Below, one piece after another: positions 8,598 to 35,963 of a stretch of DNA of 64,000 bases. Below the pieces are notes generated by a model that was given only the letters and a program-made list of their open reading frames with translations, did not search any database and was not told the DNA's origin. The stretch lies in contig CAWCKY010000001.1 in NCBI GenBank assembly GCA_963796275.1, forward strand, positions 800,001-864,000. The letters are read 5' to 3'. The DNA is from an uncultured Acidobacteriota bacterium. GTDB lineage: Bacteria > Acidobacteriota > Blastocatellia > RBC074. A program made the position numbers and the translations under genes. Every line of letters begins with the position of its first letter. Position 1 is the first letter of the stretch.

Positions 8598-9719
8598 ATG
8601 TCACAACAATCACTAAGGGCGACTGGCGAAGGAACGGCGAGATATAAAGACCGCTTTTCCGGTATTCTTGCTGACGGCCATTTCCGCAAGTCGCAAGGTT
8701 TATGGCACTCGTCCATCGGACTCGGCACTTATCTCGGCGGAACGGACGAGCGAACGGATGAGGCCTATCGCGCGGCGACCAAACGGGCTACCGAGTTGGG
8801 GTGCAATGTTTTTGACTCGGCGGCCAATTACCGCTGCCAGCGCAGCGAGCGCAATGTTGGTGATGCGCTCCTCGATCTCTTCTCACTGGGGAAGTTCACG
8901 CGCGATGAGGTGATCGTCGCTTCCAAGGCAGGGTTCATCGCCTTCGACACGGACCCACCGCGCAGCAGACAGGAGATGATCGATTATCTGGAAAAAACAT
9001 TCATAAACCCGGGCATCTGCCGATGGGATGACTTCGTCGACGGGAGTCATTGTATGACGCCGCCTTACCTCGCGCATGAGCTTGAACAGAGTCTGCGAAA
9101 CCTCAAGCTAGACTGTATCGATATTTATTATCTCCATAACCCTGAATCGCAACTTGCCCGGGTTCCGCGCGGAGAGTTTTACCAGAGATTAGGCCGCGCC
9201 TTCGAATTCCTGGAGACAGCGGTCGAAGCGGGAAAAATCGCAAGTTATGGGACGGCGACATGGAATGGATACCGAATATCGCCCGATAAATCAGATTACC
9301 TATCCTTGGAGGCGGTGGTAGGTGTAGCTCGTGAGGTGGCTGGCGATAGGCATCACTTCAAGGTAATTCAGCTGCCGGTCAATATAATGATGCTTGAAGC
9401 GTTCACGGACGTTAACCAGCCATTGGCTGGTAGGAACTATGCTTTTCTGGAAGCGGCCGCCGATCTTGGCATAACAGTCATGTCGAGCGCTTCAATTCTT
9501 CAATCCCGGTTGGCCTCTGGTCTGGACCCGATCATCAGGGATGGCTTGCCAGGGTTCAGGACGGATGCACAGATGGCCATTCAATTCACGCGATCGACGC
9601 CCGAACTGACGACGGCTCTGATCGGAATGAGTAACGTGTTACACGTCGAGGAAAACCTGGAGGTCGCAAAGACGCCTCCATTGACACCAGAGGATTATCT
9701 GAAGTTTTTCAAAGTGTAA
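8598..9719 (+). CDS. Aldo/keto reductase
   Basis: SSIGLGTY, FDSAANY, SLRNLKLDCIDIYYLHNPE. Confidence 0.9.
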   Translation: MSQQSLRATGEGTARYKDRFSGILADGHFRKSQGLWHSSIGLGTYLGGTDERTDEAYRAATKRATELGCNVFDSAANYRCQRSERNVGDALLDLFSLGKFTRDEVIVASKAGFIAFDTDPPRSRQEMIDYLEKTFINPGICRWDDFVDGSHCMTPPYLAHELEQSLRNLKLDCIDIYYLHNPESQLARVPRGEFYQRLGRAFEFLETAVEAGKIASYGTATWNGYRISPDKSDYLSLEAVVGVAREVAGDRHHFKVIQLPVNIMMLEAFTDVNQPLAGRNYAFLEAAADLGITVMSSASILQSRLASGLDPIIRDGLPGFRTDAQMAIQFTRSTPELTTALIGMSNVLHVEENLEVAKTPPLTPEDYLKFFKV

Positions 9720-9722
9720 CTA

Positions 9723-10952
9723 TCAGGGTTGCGGCCGGCCGTTATCGGCTTGCACCCGGATATAACTTAGCAGCAGGCTTAAGTTACTGAAGCGAGCGAA
9801 GAGAATCTCTCTATCTTTTCCGTTCAGGTTAAACACTATCGCCACATTCCTCAGTATCTCCGCCCCGGCGACCAGATTCTCGGGCGTAAAGGTACTCCTC
9901 ACTGCCGCCAGATCATTTTCCGCTTCCAGGCGCGCTGCCTTCGATCGGATTTCAGAAAGGCTCGGACGCAGTAAGCCCTGTGGATCGCTGACTGCCCGAG
10001 TATAGAAATCATCGATATCTTTGGCGGTGATCGGGACGAGTGGCTGGCGGTCCTGAGGATAAAGCAACGTCACCATCGCCCATACTATTCCGCCATTGAG
10101 ATAAACTTTTTTCCGGTTAATCAGGCCGGGCCTCTTTTCCAGTTCACGTTGCAGAGGCTCGCGAACAGACTTACCGCTCAATATTTGTGCTTGACTGGCG
10201 AATTTCTTGATATCAGCACCTGCACCTGCCTCTTTTTCTACTTCATCCGAGAAACCGATCGTCCCCTGAGGAATTCCGAATGTGAAGAACACATTTTCGG
10301 GTTTGCCTTTCGGTAGAATTCGAATCTGCTGATAGCCGCCTTTGATATTACCGCTGCCGACATCTACCAACACTGACATTCCCCGGTTATCGAACCAAGT
10401 CGCTCTGTCTTGATAACGCCGGGGGATCGTGCCAGCGATACTGAGGCTCGCTTCAGACTGCATGTCGAGTAAAGCTACATTCTTACCGGTTTTATTAGTT
10501 ATCGTTTTTGTAAGTTCTCCGGTGTTGTCCGCGATGAGATCGCTGCAAATGATAATATAAATCTGCTCTCTGAGAATTTGATGCTCTTGTTGCATCCGCT
10601 TGTAGAGCGTATCTACTAACTGAGAGATGTTGATGATAGCTTCATCGGTCAAATTCCCATCTTTGTATTGAGCCAGCTTGTTATTTATTACTTCAGTGGA
10701 GATTATTTTTACTCTACCGCTGGATTCGGAAATCTGGATAGCAATAGATTTAATACTTTTAGATCCTATCTCAATTCCGCCATGCAACTCACTTCGATTA
10801 TTTTGTTTCCGGTTAAGTGGGTGTCCTTTAGTAGTGAGTAGTAGATTGAGGCTCAGTGTTCCTATAGAAAGAGTAACAAAAAAAATAATGTGCAACTTCA
10901 GGGTCAGGAGATATGAAAACCGCTCTCTTAACCCAGTAACCCCTACGAGCAT
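9723..10952 (-). CDS. Membrane-anchored/exported Ppx/GppA-like (ASKHA fold) protein
   Basis: N-terminal hydrophobic helix; GGIEIGSKSIK and VDVGSGNIKGG phosphate-loop motifs; lower GC. Confidence 0.65.
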   Translation of the reverse strand: MLVGVTGLRERFSYLLTLKLHIIFFVTLSIGTLSLNLLLTTKGHPLNRKQNNRSELHGGIEIGSKSIKSIAIQISESSGRVKIISTEVINNKLAQYKDGNLTDEAIINISQLVDTLYKRMQQEHQILREQIYIIICSDLIADNTGELTKTITNKTGKNVALLDMQSEASLSIAGTIPRRYQDRATWFDNRGMSVLVDVGSGNIKGGYQQIRILPKGKPENVFFTFGIPQGTIGFSDEVEKEAGAGADIKKFASQAQILSGKSVREPLQRELEKRPGLINRKKVYLNGGIVWAMVTLLYPQDRQPLVPITAKDIDDFYTRAVSDPQGLLRPSLSEIRSKAARLEAENDLAAVRSTFTPENLVAGAEILRNVAIVFNLNGKDREILFARFSNLSLLLSYIRVQADNGRPQP

Positions 10953-11116
10953 CTCACAATTCTCCTTTTTAGCTTACGACCGGCATGCTCAAAGTGGGCG
11001 TCGTTGTTGAATATTTATGAGGGCATCCGTGTTTCTAAGTCTTTATCTACGACTAATACTACAGCAGCCTGATCCGGGACGCAAGATATTCAATAATCGC
11101 TTCAAAAACTTTTATA

Positions 11117-11145
11117 TTGACTGTGTTTCTTGCTCGTGTTAAATT
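11117..11145 (+). promoter_or_regulatory. Sigma70-type promoter
   Basis: TTGACT (11117-11122), 17 bp spacer, TAAATT (11140-11145), with extended -10 TG. Confidence 0.7.
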
Positions 11146-11210
11146 CAAAATTCTCGTTGAATAAGACGAGAGGAATGTGTGAGCAGCTAAAAAGCAACTA
11201 AAAAAAAGTT

Positions 11211-11324
11211 ATGGTAATCATTGGTAGATACAATTATATGAATGATCTCCAATTCGCACAGGATCCGCGCACGCGGGTCTGGATGGGTGCAGGATACCGG
11301 AAGAGATTACTTGTCTACCCTTAG
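11211..11324 (+). CDS. Putative attenuator leader peptide MVIIGRYNYMNDLQFAQDPRTRVWMGAGYRKRLLVYP (alternative start 11238)
   Basis: Short ORF between promoter and terminator; carries the antiterminator strand GGATACCGG. Confidence 0.55.
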   Translation: MVIIGRYNYMNDLQFAQDPRTRVWMGAGYRKRLLVYP

Positions 11325-11347
11325 ATAATCTCCAAATCGGGTTAAAT

Positions 11348-11397
11348 AAACCCCGGCCGGTATCCAAAATAGGAATACCGGCCGGGGTTTTAGTTTT
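11348..11397 (+). terminator. Intrinsic terminator of attenuator
   Basis: AAACCCCGGCCGGTAT...ATACCGGCCGGGGTTT followed by TAGTTTT. Confidence 0.85.
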
Positions 11398-11407
11398 CAG
11401 GTATCAG

Positions 11408-11501
11408 GGTATCGGGACGATGAAGCCAAAGCAATCGAGGCACGGCGAATAACAAATATAGCCGTAGTAGCTGGTGAGAGACCAGTCATCGTATAACACC
11501 A
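11408..11501 (+). ncRNA. tRNA-like cloverleaf without a canonical anticodon loop
   Basis: ACGATG/CATCGT acceptor, GCC/GGC D stem, ACGGC/GCCGT stem with 14-nt loop, GCTGG-TGAGAGA-CCAGT T arm, ends ACCA. Confidence 0.65.
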
Positions 11502-12180
11502 CTTTCAGGATGCGTTGCCGTAGACTCGGCTGACATAGTTACACTAAAGCTGTTCCGGATGTGAAGGTACCGGTTTAGGTAGTTTCACATGGTGGCATTA
11601 GTGTGACCGTCGGTAGAATCCGTCAAGGCTCACTGGCGATGCCCTGAGCGAATGTAGGGCAGGGTTTTATCCTGCCCTGTGAAGGGAAAGGCATTTAGAA
11701 ACTGCCCTACATTATTGACATTCAGGTTCGAAACTTAAGTAAAATATTTTCACAGGTCAGCCCGCGAAATGGGCGGAGGCATCTAGCACTGGGTATGCTC
11801 GTGATATAGCTTGGAGCCCATGAATATGGGCGACAAAGTTTGGGTAATGACAAGGGCTAAATCTCACCGCCCACTCCGTGGGCTGATATGGTTTGTGAAA
11901 AGCTGATTATCCGAAGATCAACAATGCTCACATCGCATGTGTGTACACCGACATCGGGCTAAGGAGCTGAATATAAGAAAGCGTCGGCAAGAAAGAGCTC
12001 ATAGTGCACCGTAGTATAACTTTGTAGGTATTTTTTTGTTATCGTCGAGGGTGCGCGGCGCATTCGAGAAGTGTGCATATGACAGTCGATTTTTATATGA
12101 AAGAATGACGGTTCGAAGAAGACCGGGAATATCGCGCAGCCATAGCACAACCTACCCAAATTAAAGCTGAGAAAATCAGT
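11502..12180 (+). ncRNA. Large highly structured ncRNA, candidate ROOL-like
   Basis: No credible ORF; many nested G-U-containing helices, candidate long-range pseudoknot; motifs recalled from ROOL (not computed). Confidence 0.6.
11651..11713. repeat. GTAG-type REP-like hairpin inside the ncRNA
   Basis: AATGTAGGGCAG / CTGCCCTACATT perfect 12-bp inverted repeat. Confidence 0.7.
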
Positions 12181-12285
12181 ACCGCGAGCGGTGGCGAGCG
12201 TAGTTTCCAGAACTCAGAATATTCCAGAAACTAAGCTCGTTTCGTATGTTAAAGGTTTTACGATGACCGCTATGCCATACCCGAT

Positions 12286-13768
12286 TCACCATCCCAGCAC
12301 ACGATTTCCCGGGTCATTCCACCTGCTCAAGATCACTTTGTTATGCGTATAGAAGAGGAATCCTTCGGTGCCTTGAATATGCAGGTCGCCGAAGAATGAT
12401 TGATTCCAGCCGGTGAATGGAAAGATCGCCATTGGCGCGGGGACGCCTACATTCACACCAATCATCCCGCATTTGACATAACGGGCGAATGTGCGAGCCG
12501 AGCCACCGTCGCGCGTAAAGATTACGGCGCCGTTTCCGTAGGGCGAAGCGTTCGCGCGCGCGATCGCCTCGTGGATATCCGCGACGCGCATCACTGAAAG
12601 GACCGGTCCGAAAATTTCATCGGACGCAATGTGCATCTCCGATTCCACGCGATCAAAAATCGTCGGCCCCACAAAGAAACCTTCGCTGGATTGGGTCAAA
12701 GACGTGTTGCGGCCGTCAGTTGCCAGCCTTGCCCCTTCGTTCAACCCGGTATCGATATAGTTGCGGACCCGATCTCGGGCGGCGGGATCTATCACTGGTC
12801 CCATATCGACTGCGCCGCCATCATCGGTCGGTCCAACGCGCATCTTCCGCGCCGCGGCATCGAGGCTTTCGATCAATGCATCTCCCGCCTTGCCGACTGC
12901 GACGGCGACGCTGCCAGCCATGCAACGTTGCCCGCTGCATCCGAACGCCGCGCCTATGATCTGACTCGTCGCGGCATCCAGATACCGCATCAGGCATAAC
13001 CAGCATATAATTCTTCGCACCGCCGGCGGCCTGTACGCGCTTACCGTGCGCCGTCCCGGTTTCATAAATATATTTTGCTACCCCGGTCGAGCCGACGAAA
13101 CTGACGGCCGCAACATCGGGATGGGTGAGCAGGGCATCGACCGTTTCGCTGCCGCCATTCACAACGTTGAAGACGCCCTTTGGTAAGCCGGCGTCGGTGA
13201 GCAGTTCCGCCATCCGTAATGGGGTCAGCGGGACTTTCGGCGACGGTTTGAGGATGAAGGTGTTTCCGCAGACGATGGCGATAGGGAACATCCAAAGCGG
13301 GACCATGGCGGGAAAATTGAACGGCGTGATGCCCACGCAGACTCCCAATGGATGGCGCTGTACTTGTCCGTCGATTCCGCGCGCTATGTTGTCGAGAGTC
13401 TGTCCCATGAGTATAGACGGAGCGCTGCAGGCCAGTTCGACCATTTCTATTCCGCGCCGCACGTCTCCACGCGCTTCTTCGAGGGTCTTGCCGTGTTCGC
13501 GCGTGACCATGCGTGCTAGGGAATCGAAGTTTTCTTCGAGCAAGTGCGCGAAACGAAACATAATGCGCGCTCGCTCTACAACTGGCGTATCAGCCCAGGC
13601 TGAAAAAGCATTTTTGGCGGTTTGGACTGCTCGATCGACGGTTTGAGGGTCGCTGTCTGGGGTCTGCGCGATTACCTCTCCCCTGGATGGATTGTAGACT
13701 GGTGTGTAATGCGATGATGTGGCGGGTGTCAGATCGCCGCCGATGTAGTTGTGGCATATAGTGTTCAT
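12286..13768 (-). CDS. mmsA: CoA-acylating (methyl)malonate-semialdehyde dehydrogenase; frameshift near 12984
   Basis: ITPFNFPAMVPLW, VSFVGST, AGGAKN, GCSGQRCMA, EIFGPV, GNGAVIFT. Confidence 0.92.

Positions 13769-35864: not shown

Positions 35865-35963
<99 letters not shown>

Follow-up and report, generated by a model that had tools for sequence, protein, structure and literature searches.

Positions 11211-11497 of the 64,000-nucleotide stretch analysed here (the window; contig CAWCKY010000001.1 of an uncultured Blastocatellia bacterium, genome G000, with the locus itself termed L020) probably represent an orphaned leader, composed of a ribosome-dependent attenuator and a tRNA-derived cloverleaf RNA, whose operon has been lost. 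The leader lies in a gap between a gene for a 409 amino acid protein and an mmsA-like gene, and the longest open reading frame (ORF) within 10953-12285 measures at most 66 amino acids. On the plus strand the gap contains, in this order, promoter-like hexamers, an ORF of 37 codons, a GC-rich hairpin with a U-tract, a structured element and approximately 790 nt without genes. An earlier interpretation made from the letters alone (the sequence-only reading) had taken this gap for a protein-free operon, in which a sigma70 promoter, a 37-codon upstream ORF and a terminator/antiterminator control a tRNA-shaped element and a giant structured RNA of about 670 nt. The small ORF and the convergent orientation of the next gene are as stated there, and the terminator/antiterminator is present and more elaborate than described, with two upstream strands (A and B) pairing with the 5' arm of the terminator.

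A DNA search of 11100-12200 against 40 related genomes matched 11292-11492 in 13 genomes, the other matching part being the short repeat at 12155-12200. With a covariance model of the cloverleaf element (R1) one copy was found in 50 of the 87 genomes of one Blastocatellia (Acidobacteriota) family; four of these prove to be real tRNAs, which leaves 46 module-bearing genomes spanning 12 of the 17 genera of the family (36 of the 46 genome loci were inspected by eye). Across eight other families of the class (78 genomes) the same model found no element. In a ninth family (34 genomes) there are two matches, both to tRNAs within tRNA arrays. The weak matches of G066, G070, G077, G080, G198 and G029 and the second match of G020, all of them real tRNAs, were not counted. 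In metagenome contigs a pattern scan gave 31 further loci matching R1, and the public contigs with a match carry the titles Acidobacteria, Blastocatellia or Blastocatellales. An occurrence in Bacillota was considered and dropped: seven of the 26 genome-collection matches are titled Heliobacteriaceae or Heliomicrobium, and these labels were judged doubtful because the loci have the same gene neighbours as the family loci, with 54-75% protein identity and several loci equal to family loci. The public metagenome-assembled genome records with such a doubtful label are L050, L053, L054, L057, L059, L060 and L063, each with an Acidobacteria-type locus. The search of relatives for the four-part order, which the sequence-only reading had proposed, is answered in part: small ORF, switch and tRNA mimic are conserved together, but the 670 nt of the window are not.

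The switch was studied on 30 loci, namely the 26 with a shared arrangement and, from a genome-collection scan, L050, L055, L063 and L065. The shared arrangement upstream of the cloverleaf is present in 26 of 30 family loci (L016-L045, the window included). The complement of strand A, CCGGTATCC, is located at 11357-11365 and forms the upper half of the 5' arm of the terminator; all nine of nine pairs can form in the window. In the 29 loci scored (L063 was left out, as the search pattern missed its 3' arm) this helix keeps 7-9 of 9 pairs, and the upper half of the arm usually makes more pairs with A than with the terminator's own 3' arm. The distance from A to the arm is constant, at 64-78 nt, after correction of the mis-anchored rows L025, L032 and L037. 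Compensatory changes between A and the arm occur in L016, L024, L033, L034 and L044, corresponding to at least four lineages; in L034 and L044 a T to C change is accompanied by an A to G change, which costs a Tyr to Cys change in the small ORF. The pairing of B with the base of the arm is likewise kept, as GGCTT/AAGCC in L024 and as GGTTT/AAACC in L028-L030. Within the arms of the terminator itself G to A and C to T changes covary.

When the nascent RNA, up to the 3' arm, is folded, the minimum-energy structure contains the A helix in 27 and the local B hairpin in 24 of the 30 loci; the helices of A and the upper arm and of B and the lower arm, together with a hairpin H, make up a three-way junction. 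Folding of the full length gives the terminator in all 30 loci. Junction and terminator are predicted to be mutually exclusive over the whole arm. Two traits of ribosome-dependent attenuators, the terminator and an antiterminator fold that excludes it, are both found here, with compensatory changes. The terminator of the window was missed by the automatic terminator scan (loop of 11 nt; stem 11351-11363 with 11375-11387), and Rfam models of small RNAs that bear terminators align to it below threshold. From the U-tract to the cloverleaf there are approximately 16 nt in the window, and similarly few (10-25 nt) in L019, L022 and L023; a promoter of their own is therefore improbable for the cloverleaf and what follows it.

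Strand A coincides with the codons Gly-Tyr-Arg of the small ORF. Of the three frames that run through A, frame 0 stays open longest in 23 of 28 loci (one mis-anchored locus was left out of the count), its median being 237 nt versus 79.5 and 121.5 nt for the two others. Counted from the first ATG, the ORF has 56-85 codons in 23 of 25 tabulated relatives, mostly 62-67; the exceptions are L040 with 48 codons and L021, which is cut by the extraction window. Counted from where A begins, the stop codon falls at +24 to +42 nt, in 17 of 28 loci at precisely +30, and is placed inside hairpin H. A conserved open leader ORF thus appears to end beside the switch, as in known attenuators. Apart from Tyr-Arg the peptides are poorly conserved. 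A conserved C-terminal peptide was considered and rejected, since the covariation of the hairpin and the Tyr to Cys changes show constraint at the level of the RNA. With 37 codons versus 78 in the same-genus genome G001 the ORF of the window is the shortest of all; in an alignment with G001 its two ends and the bases preceding the ATG find a counterpart and the middle is missing, and it is a shortened copy of the leader ORF of the relatives.

The structured element behind the terminator had been described as tRNA-shaped and ending in CCA. A cloverleaf with covariation is indeed present, but the CCA does not belong to it: it lies at 11499-11501, 7 nt past the last pair of the closing stem (P1), which is not the tRNA position, it is peculiar to the genome of the window, and the 3' flank of the closing stem varies among relatives. 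In the window P1 pairs 11417-11422 with 11487-11492 and is followed by AA, the D-like arm is composed of GCC (11425-11427), an 11-nt loop and GGC (11439-11441), the variable arm (11442-11465) is followed by AGTA, and the T-like arm pairs 11470-11474 with 11482-11486 around the loop TGAGAGA. The consensus has in its 5' part an 8-bp closing stem, two unpaired A and a 3-bp GCC/GGC stem with the 11-nt loop AAAGYAWUCGM, and in its 3' part a hairpin whose length is free, the linker AGUAG, a 5-bp stem capped by the 7-nt loop UGAGAGU and, with no gap, the 3' strand of the closing stem. In an alignment of 62 distinct sequences 93.6% of the cells are paired and 13 of the 19 pairs show changes on both sides, a score reached by none of 500 shuffles, although such controls overstate significance since the sequences are related. 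If partners are slid by 1-3 columns, pairing falls to 26-47%. The covariation, also examined in a 30-sequence version, comes from 6 of 8 pairs in the closing stem and 4 of 5 in the T-like stem. G-U pairs are frequent and identify the plus strand as the RNA strand.

Layout and spacing of the cloverleaf are those of tRNA. Among 13 R1 matches in the eight loci fetched for weak or second genome matches, eleven are tRNAs called by ARAGORN, scoring 25-42 bits, with the specificities Met, Cys, Glu, Leu, Ala, His and Asn; the two others are a variant copy of the element and an uncalled tRNA-like sequence in a tRNA array. Because the model of the element also finds true tRNAs as weak matches, we infer descent from a tRNA. 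In a comparison with 47 tRNAs of its own genome two tRNA-Cys genes align best to the cloverleaf, which is a weak lead to an origin from tRNA-Cys.

A canonical tRNA has a 5-bp anticodon stem with a 7-nt loop, a T-loop UUCRANY, a D-loop with GG, and a discriminator base with CCA. The element has A at position 8, a D-loop without GG and the T-loop UGAGAGU, and its "anticodon" arm ranges from a few to approximately 60 nt across loci. ARAGORN found no tRNA in the gap, nor in the element-bearing loci L016, L017, L019, L024, L038 and L087. At E<=10 Rfam gave no tRNA (RF00005) match in 10900-12350, only ten matches far below threshold, mostly terminator look-alikes. By all these features the cloverleaf is not a tRNA. 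It constitutes an RNA family that is new, strongly supported by covariation and clearly associated with particular genes. Its unpaired positions (AAAGYAWUCGM, AGUAG and UGAGAGU) are highly conserved, and like riboswitches it is a conserved structured element in a 5' leader; no conserved terminator and no fold hiding the Shine-Dalgarno sequence was seen behind it in relatives.

Further observations concern the surroundings of the element and its look-alikes. One genus has a second copy of the cloverleaf, a variant with GAAGCTAAAG or GAAGCCGAAG, in L038, L041, L042 (1501-1578) and L087:2501-2579; the gene behind the variant of L038 encodes a secreted-looking protein of 405 amino acids. In many relatives the spacer between terminator and cloverleaf measures 40-120 nt and carries the conserved motif (T)CGTCCTCAGCC, as in L021, L027 and L040. 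By eye, this motif pairs with TGAGGGAT, which is directly 5' of the cloverleaf, to give an additional helix (GTCCTCA...TGAGGGAT); the 5' partner is missing in the window. Arrays of 21-32 tRNA genes in 3.6-4.1 kb are found in L080 (G198), L081 (G029), L085 (G077) and L086 (G080), and the cloverleaf at L080:2001-2080, inside such an array and uncalled by ARAGORN, is the most similar to the leader element among the tRNA-array sequences.

In relatives the leader is followed by genes. Downstream of the cloverleaf and on its strand, 25 of 29 genome loci and 25 of 31 metagenome loci encode a protein of 150 amino acids (p158), a transporter of the MFS_3 type (PF05977), or both. Among the six metagenome loci with neither gene, four have less than 300 nt of downstream sequence. 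This is at variance with a protein-free operon, which would here be the product of gene loss. The p158 protein (L016:865-1317, minus strand, and orthologues) has about 150 amino acids, with His38, His41, His83 and Glu84 invariant, and is predicted to be all-helical in an AlphaFold model (predicted local distance difference test, pLDDT, 82.7). No Pfam or NCBIfam family includes it, and a Foldseek comparison of the model with PDB gave none of 49 matches at E<=0.001. The Atlas places p158 in hypothetical-protein clusters of Acidobacteriota and Pseudomonadota.

A second type of cargo is the raiA motif RNA (RF03072; cut-off 101.3 bits). It is located behind the cloverleaf, on the same strand and starting 19-25 nt downstream, in 7 of 29 genome loci above the Rfam gathering score and in one more below it, and the adjacency was established by coordinates in nine genomes. 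A full raiA follows the cloverleaf in 16 of 31 metagenome loci, as detected with a family-specific nhmmer profile built from 16 raiA sequences of the family. In raiA-bearing loci the distance from cloverleaf to genes is approximately 400 nt. In L036 the interval between raiA and the start of p158 is only about 50 nt long and contains a Shine-Dalgarno sequence, and raiA is therefore inside the leader. Within the family raiA is a single-copy element of 28 of the 87 genomes, in 26 of them over the Rfam cut-off (examples are L017:1602-1856, L019:1615-1860 and L072-L079). It is found within the described leader in five genera, and elsewhere without the cloverleaf in three genera, mostly behind a gene ending that is ribBA-like (eight loci, named by eye); because of this latter type of locus cloverleaf and raiA are regarded as separable modules. 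Short 5' remnants of raiA directly behind the cloverleaf were seen at L114:5847-5903 and L117:978-1028, which suggests that raiA was deleted there and that its loss is repeated. The succession of attenuator, tRNA-shaped element and large RNA that had been read into the window does exist, then, in those relatives with raiA, but not in the window.

The genome of the window has lost raiA, p158 and the transporter. By tblastn p158 is absent from G000 (E<=1e-3), and the best match of the transporter there is 28% identical. No raiA was found in the window (Rfam, E<=10) or in the genome (Rfam and the lineage nhmmer profile, E<=1), and no pseudogene remains of p158 or of the transporter in L020 (tblastn, E<=1e-5). 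In a MAFFT alignment the resemblance to relatives is gradually lost about 35 nt past the cloverleaf. A DNA contig covering 11355-11577 shows that a relative of approximately 95% identity shares the sequence up to 11577; this contig bridges the terminator, the cloverleaf and the first 80 nt of the filler behind it, and error-free contigs from another run cover 11494-11732 and 11769-11949. As DNA contigs cross the junction of cloverleaf and filler or cover the filler, the junction is not an assembly artefact.

The filler at 11500-12180 is the part for which a giant structured RNA had been proposed, on the model of ROOL/GOLLD, to be expressed by readthrough and released at the tRNA mimic. We consider a functional RNA of this kind highly improbable. 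The dense structure is real, the plus strand folding far better than shuffles with z -6.33, there is no ORF above 66 amino acids in the stretch, and the mimic is indeed followed by a large structured RNA, raiA, in relatives. The minus strand, however, reaches z -5.69, and because both strands fold alike the folding is attributed to palindromes in the DNA and not to a strand-specific RNA. There is no match to any Rfam 15 family or raiA profile, for Rfam even at E<=10. Behind 11493 nothing but the repeat at 12155-12200 matches in 40 related genomes, two of them of the same genus, and 11500-12180 is conserved in none of 34 metagenome loci, only the strain of about 95% identity sharing sequence as far as 11577. 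In addition, 11711-11925 and 12155-12245 belong to two dispersed repeat families found genome-wide, and the whole of 11500-12180 is non-conserved, repeat-rich filler.

Full or partial copies of the 11711-11925 repeat are found at about nine other places of the same genome. The family has a TTGACA-containing start and inverted ends TTTTCACAGATCAGCCCG ... CGGGCTGATTTGGTTTGTGAAAAG, and occurs in short (about 115 nt) and long (about 300 nt) forms which differ by insertions in a central loop. Copies in G000 are located at C4:936545-936837, C2:322758-322912, C6:284301-284523, C7:746178-746280, C3:885822-885933, C2:498663-498780 and C4:530581-530682. It could be a family of miniature inverted-repeat transposable elements (MITE) or of small-RNA genes. 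The 12155-12245 repeat recurs at more than 60 other places of G000, accounts for most of 66 own-genome matches (depth 41-74; unit 27-46 nt), often occurs as inverted pairs about 60 nt apart, and is also present in several related genomes. Like MITEs and repetitive extragenic palindromic (REP) sequences, the two repeats recur in many dispersed copies, have inverted ends or pairs and fold alike on both strands; the class names are used descriptively.

Table 1. Features of the gap and its neighbours; positions are those of the window.
Feature	Position	Strand	Basis or remark
Aldo/keto reductase gene	8598..9719	+	ORF; Pfam PF00248, E 2.6e-28
409-amino acid gene, unclear family	9723..10952	-	ORF; Pfam/NCBIfam matches all sub-threshold
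Sigma-70-like hexamers TTGACT-17-TAAATT with TG, putative promoter	11117..11145	+	9/12 matches
Small ORF, 37 codons	11211..11324	+	ORF list, comparison with relatives
Strand A, GGATACCGG	11292..11300	+	Pairs with upper half of terminator 5' arm
Hairpin H, sequence variable, shape conserved	11303..11332	+	Contains small-ORF stop codon 11322-11324
Strand B, GGGTT	11339..11343	+	Pairs with AACCC 11349-11353, base of terminator 5' arm
Intrinsic terminator	11349..11397	+	5' arm 11349-11365, 3' arm 11372-11387, U-tract TTTTAGTTTT 11388-11397
Cloverleaf RNA, predicted tRNA-derived	11414..11495	+	Covariance model R1, 86.2 bits; covariation
Stretch weakly alignable to relatives	11496..11531	+	MAFFT alignment; likely breakpoint behind
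Unique palindrome-rich filler	11532..11710	.	Long hairpins at about 11538-11610 and 11651-11715; terminator-like site 11640-11661 (+)
MITE-like repeat, inverted ends, nested internal variants	11711..11925	.	Own-genome copies
Unique non-conserved sequence	11926..12154	.	No match in relatives
REP-like short palindromic repeat	12155..12245	.	Abundant own-genome matches, also in relatives
Convergent mmsA-like aldehyde dehydrogenase gene	12286..13768	-	Two overlapping ORFs, 12286-13065 and 12821-13768

Upstream of the module, relatives usually have the aldo/keto reductase gene, an orthologue of which was found by tblastn in this position in 16 of 29 genome loci. The 409-amino acid gene was found by the same search only in L020, and in no relative examined does it stand between the reductase gene and the small ORF. 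The hexamers of the putative promoter are present, as the sequence-only reading had it, but their frequency is not above chance: four promoter-like sites are found in 10800-12400 versus 2.8 +/- 1.8 in shuffles. The region upstream of the small ORF in G000 aligns too poorly to G001 for the conservation of the site to be judged. For the gene at 12286-13768 we presume the name mmsA, taken over from that earlier reading; it is split into ORFs of 259 and 315 amino acids, a frame shift which represents either a pseudogene or an assembly error. At the gathering score Rfam detects in the whole window only tRNA-Lys and tRNA-Sec, both outside the gap. The tRNA-Sec gene (35865-35963, minus strand; ARAGORN and Rfam) indicates that the organism probably uses selenocysteine.

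From this architecture the following working of the leader can be proposed. A ribosome reaching the stop codon would melt or cover hairpin H and block A from the arm, so that the terminator would form and transcription would end at 11388-11397. With the ribosome stalled upstream, or absent, the three-way junction would form first and RNA polymerase would read on. The cloverleaf may serve as a tRNA-type handle for processing, by RNase P at its 5' side and RNase Z or E at its 3' side, or for stabilisation, a role to which we give somewhat less than an even chance. Cleavage at the cloverleaf would free the downstream RNA, that is raiA and/or the p158-MFS_3 mRNA, from the leader. By analogy with leader-controlled resistance genes, the exporter-type cargo would fit induction by translation inhibitors. 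In the genome of the window readthrough could only enter non-conserved palindromic and repeat DNA. A bolder extension, which we think unlikely, is that in many members of the family the handle releases raiA/ModT, whose synthesis on demand would follow the state of translation and go together with that of the exporter operon, and that the cargo-less handle of the window may give rise to a free tRNA mimic, induced by stress and with its own role.

The main rival to the role as a processing handle leaves the switch as described and takes the cloverleaf for a sensor, riboswitch-like or binding a protein such as a tRNA-binding factor or p158, which would add a second layer of control by adjusting how well the downstream genes are translated or how stable their RNA is. 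The highly conserved unpaired nucleotides and a four-way junction of aptamer-like size speak for a sensor, as do the variant copies located about 30 nt before a start codon without an attenuator and the extra conserved helix (GTCCTCA...TGAGGGAT) which by eye abuts the 5' end of the cloverleaf in many relatives. No conserved expression platform was found behind the cloverleaf, however, in raiA loci it is approximately 400 nt away from the genes, p158 is without recognisable fold or family, and the descent from tRNA makes enzymes of tRNA processing the simpler guess. We rate the sensor below the handle, as a rather doubtful candidate. That the cloverleaf is a decaying, functionless pseudo-tRNA beside the operon by chance is the least credible of the explanations considered. 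It does resemble tRNA-Cys of its own genome and the length of its "anticodon" arm is free, but A at position 8, the GG-less D-loop and the UGAGAGU T-loop are kept across 12 genera, and compensatory changes hold its stems, unlike those of a decaying gene.

It is also conceivable that there is no attenuation at all, and that the small ORF is a small-protein gene with its own terminator, A and B stabilising the 3' end of its mRNA and the downstream part being a separate unit. With about 65 amino acids in relatives the ORF exceeds what is expected of a leader peptide, a strong terminator is found in every locus, and some relatives have spacers long enough (up to about 120 nt) for a promoter. Nevertheless, the 10-25 nt between U-tract and cloverleaf in the window, L019, L022 and L023 leave no room for one, A and B are complementary to the arm of the terminator itself and covary with it at the cost of amino acids, and the fixed place of the stop codon inside H would be purposeless. 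On balance we regard this explanation as improbable.

Several points weigh against the orphaned attenuator leader with its tRNA-derived handle, besides the inflated shuffle controls mentioned above. The only contig of an RNA library in this region, with a depth of 2.8, covers 11057-11248 and spans the predicted promoter; it fits a start upstream or on the opposite strand, or carry-over of DNA, better than a start at about 11152. The ORF of the window is much shorter than all others and the switch may no longer work here, and in the peptide alignment there is neither a regulatory codon run nor a conserved arrest motif. As for the cloverleaf, the D-like GCC/GGC stem is invariant except for three U-G pairs and so without support from covariation, and the base of the variable arm is paired in only 75% of the 62-sequence alignment. 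Its role in processing is pure inference: T-loop and D-loop depart from the elbow by which RNase P recognises tRNA, and the 3' CCA is not a conserved feature. The variants in L038, L041 and L042, about 30 nt before a gene and without an upstream attenuator, fit a translational regulator equally well as a processing site. The RNA run X2 has no contig on 11257-12400, which weighs neither way, and X4 and most of X3 match repeats only.

Ribosome-dependent attenuators are known from the trp and his leaders and from antibiotic-responsive leaders, e.g. bmrB-bmrCD. The module shares with them a small upstream ORF, an intrinsic terminator and an exclusive alternative fold which would be set by the position of the ribosome, and its genes include a transporter of the drug-exporter type. 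Unlike in known attenuators, its ORF has about 65 codons without a regulatory codon run, the terminator arm is clamped at two places by a three-way junction serving as antiterminator, the terminator is followed by a tRNA-derived RNA, and some genomes have raiA between switch and genes. Attenuator-type leaders are treated for the tylosin-induced yxjB (PMC6851288), for msrD (10.1101/2021.11.29.470318) and for trpL (PMC7298713).

The cloverleaf resembles tRNA in its 8-bp acceptor-like stem, the 2 nt that follow, the 3-bp D-like stem, the 4-5-nt linker and the 5-bp T-like stem. Other tRNA-like RNAs are the bacterial Y RNA (YrlA) and MALAT1-mascRNA. In contrast to tRNA and to tRNA-like substrates of RNase P, it sits inside an mRNA leader and has no fixed anticodon arm. 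According to a review (PMC11143913), RNase P cuts tRNA-like folds, pre-tmRNA, tRNA-like ends of viruses, mRNAs and riboswitch folds.

The raiA of the relatives is a bona fide raiA motif RNA/ModT, single-copy and scoring 102-128 bits. As far as the accessible parts of PMC10861870, PMC11706538 and PMC12968392 go, raiA occurs mainly in Bacillota and Actinomycetota and has in Clostridium its own promoter and terminator; in the available main texts of these three the string "Acidobacteri" has no occurrence. Unlike the raiA described there, that of the present family is from Acidobacteriota and lies inside a leader behind an attenuator, and the genome of the window has none. A literature search gave no paper joining Blastocatellia with noncoding RNA. 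According to the sequence-only reading, RNAs of the ROOL and GOLLD types often lie beside tRNAs. Being large and structured is the only trait that the giant RNA proposed for the window shares with ROOL/GOLLD (PMC12286853), and 11500-12180 differs from them in having neither an Rfam match nor conservation.

The leader architecture, with an upstream ORF and switch joined to a conserved tRNA-derived RNA, is new in so far as it is found neither in Rfam 15 nor in the literature searched. For the reading of genomes, the window is an example of how the unusually stable folding of an ORF-free gap can stem from palindromic repeats, and of how an apparent RNA-only operon can be the remnant of one that was lost. 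The cloverleaf family is directly testable for cleavage by RNase P or Z and for a binding partner. The most interesting lead is the order of attenuator, mimic and raiA in the relatives, and this by-product may matter more than the window itself. raiA/ModT is an abundant RNA of enigmatic function, and its context in Acidobacteriota, between a switch and an exporter operon, helps in reasoning on when it is made; if the cloverleaf is indeed a handle that releases raiA/ModT, this would be the first regulatory context for raiA.

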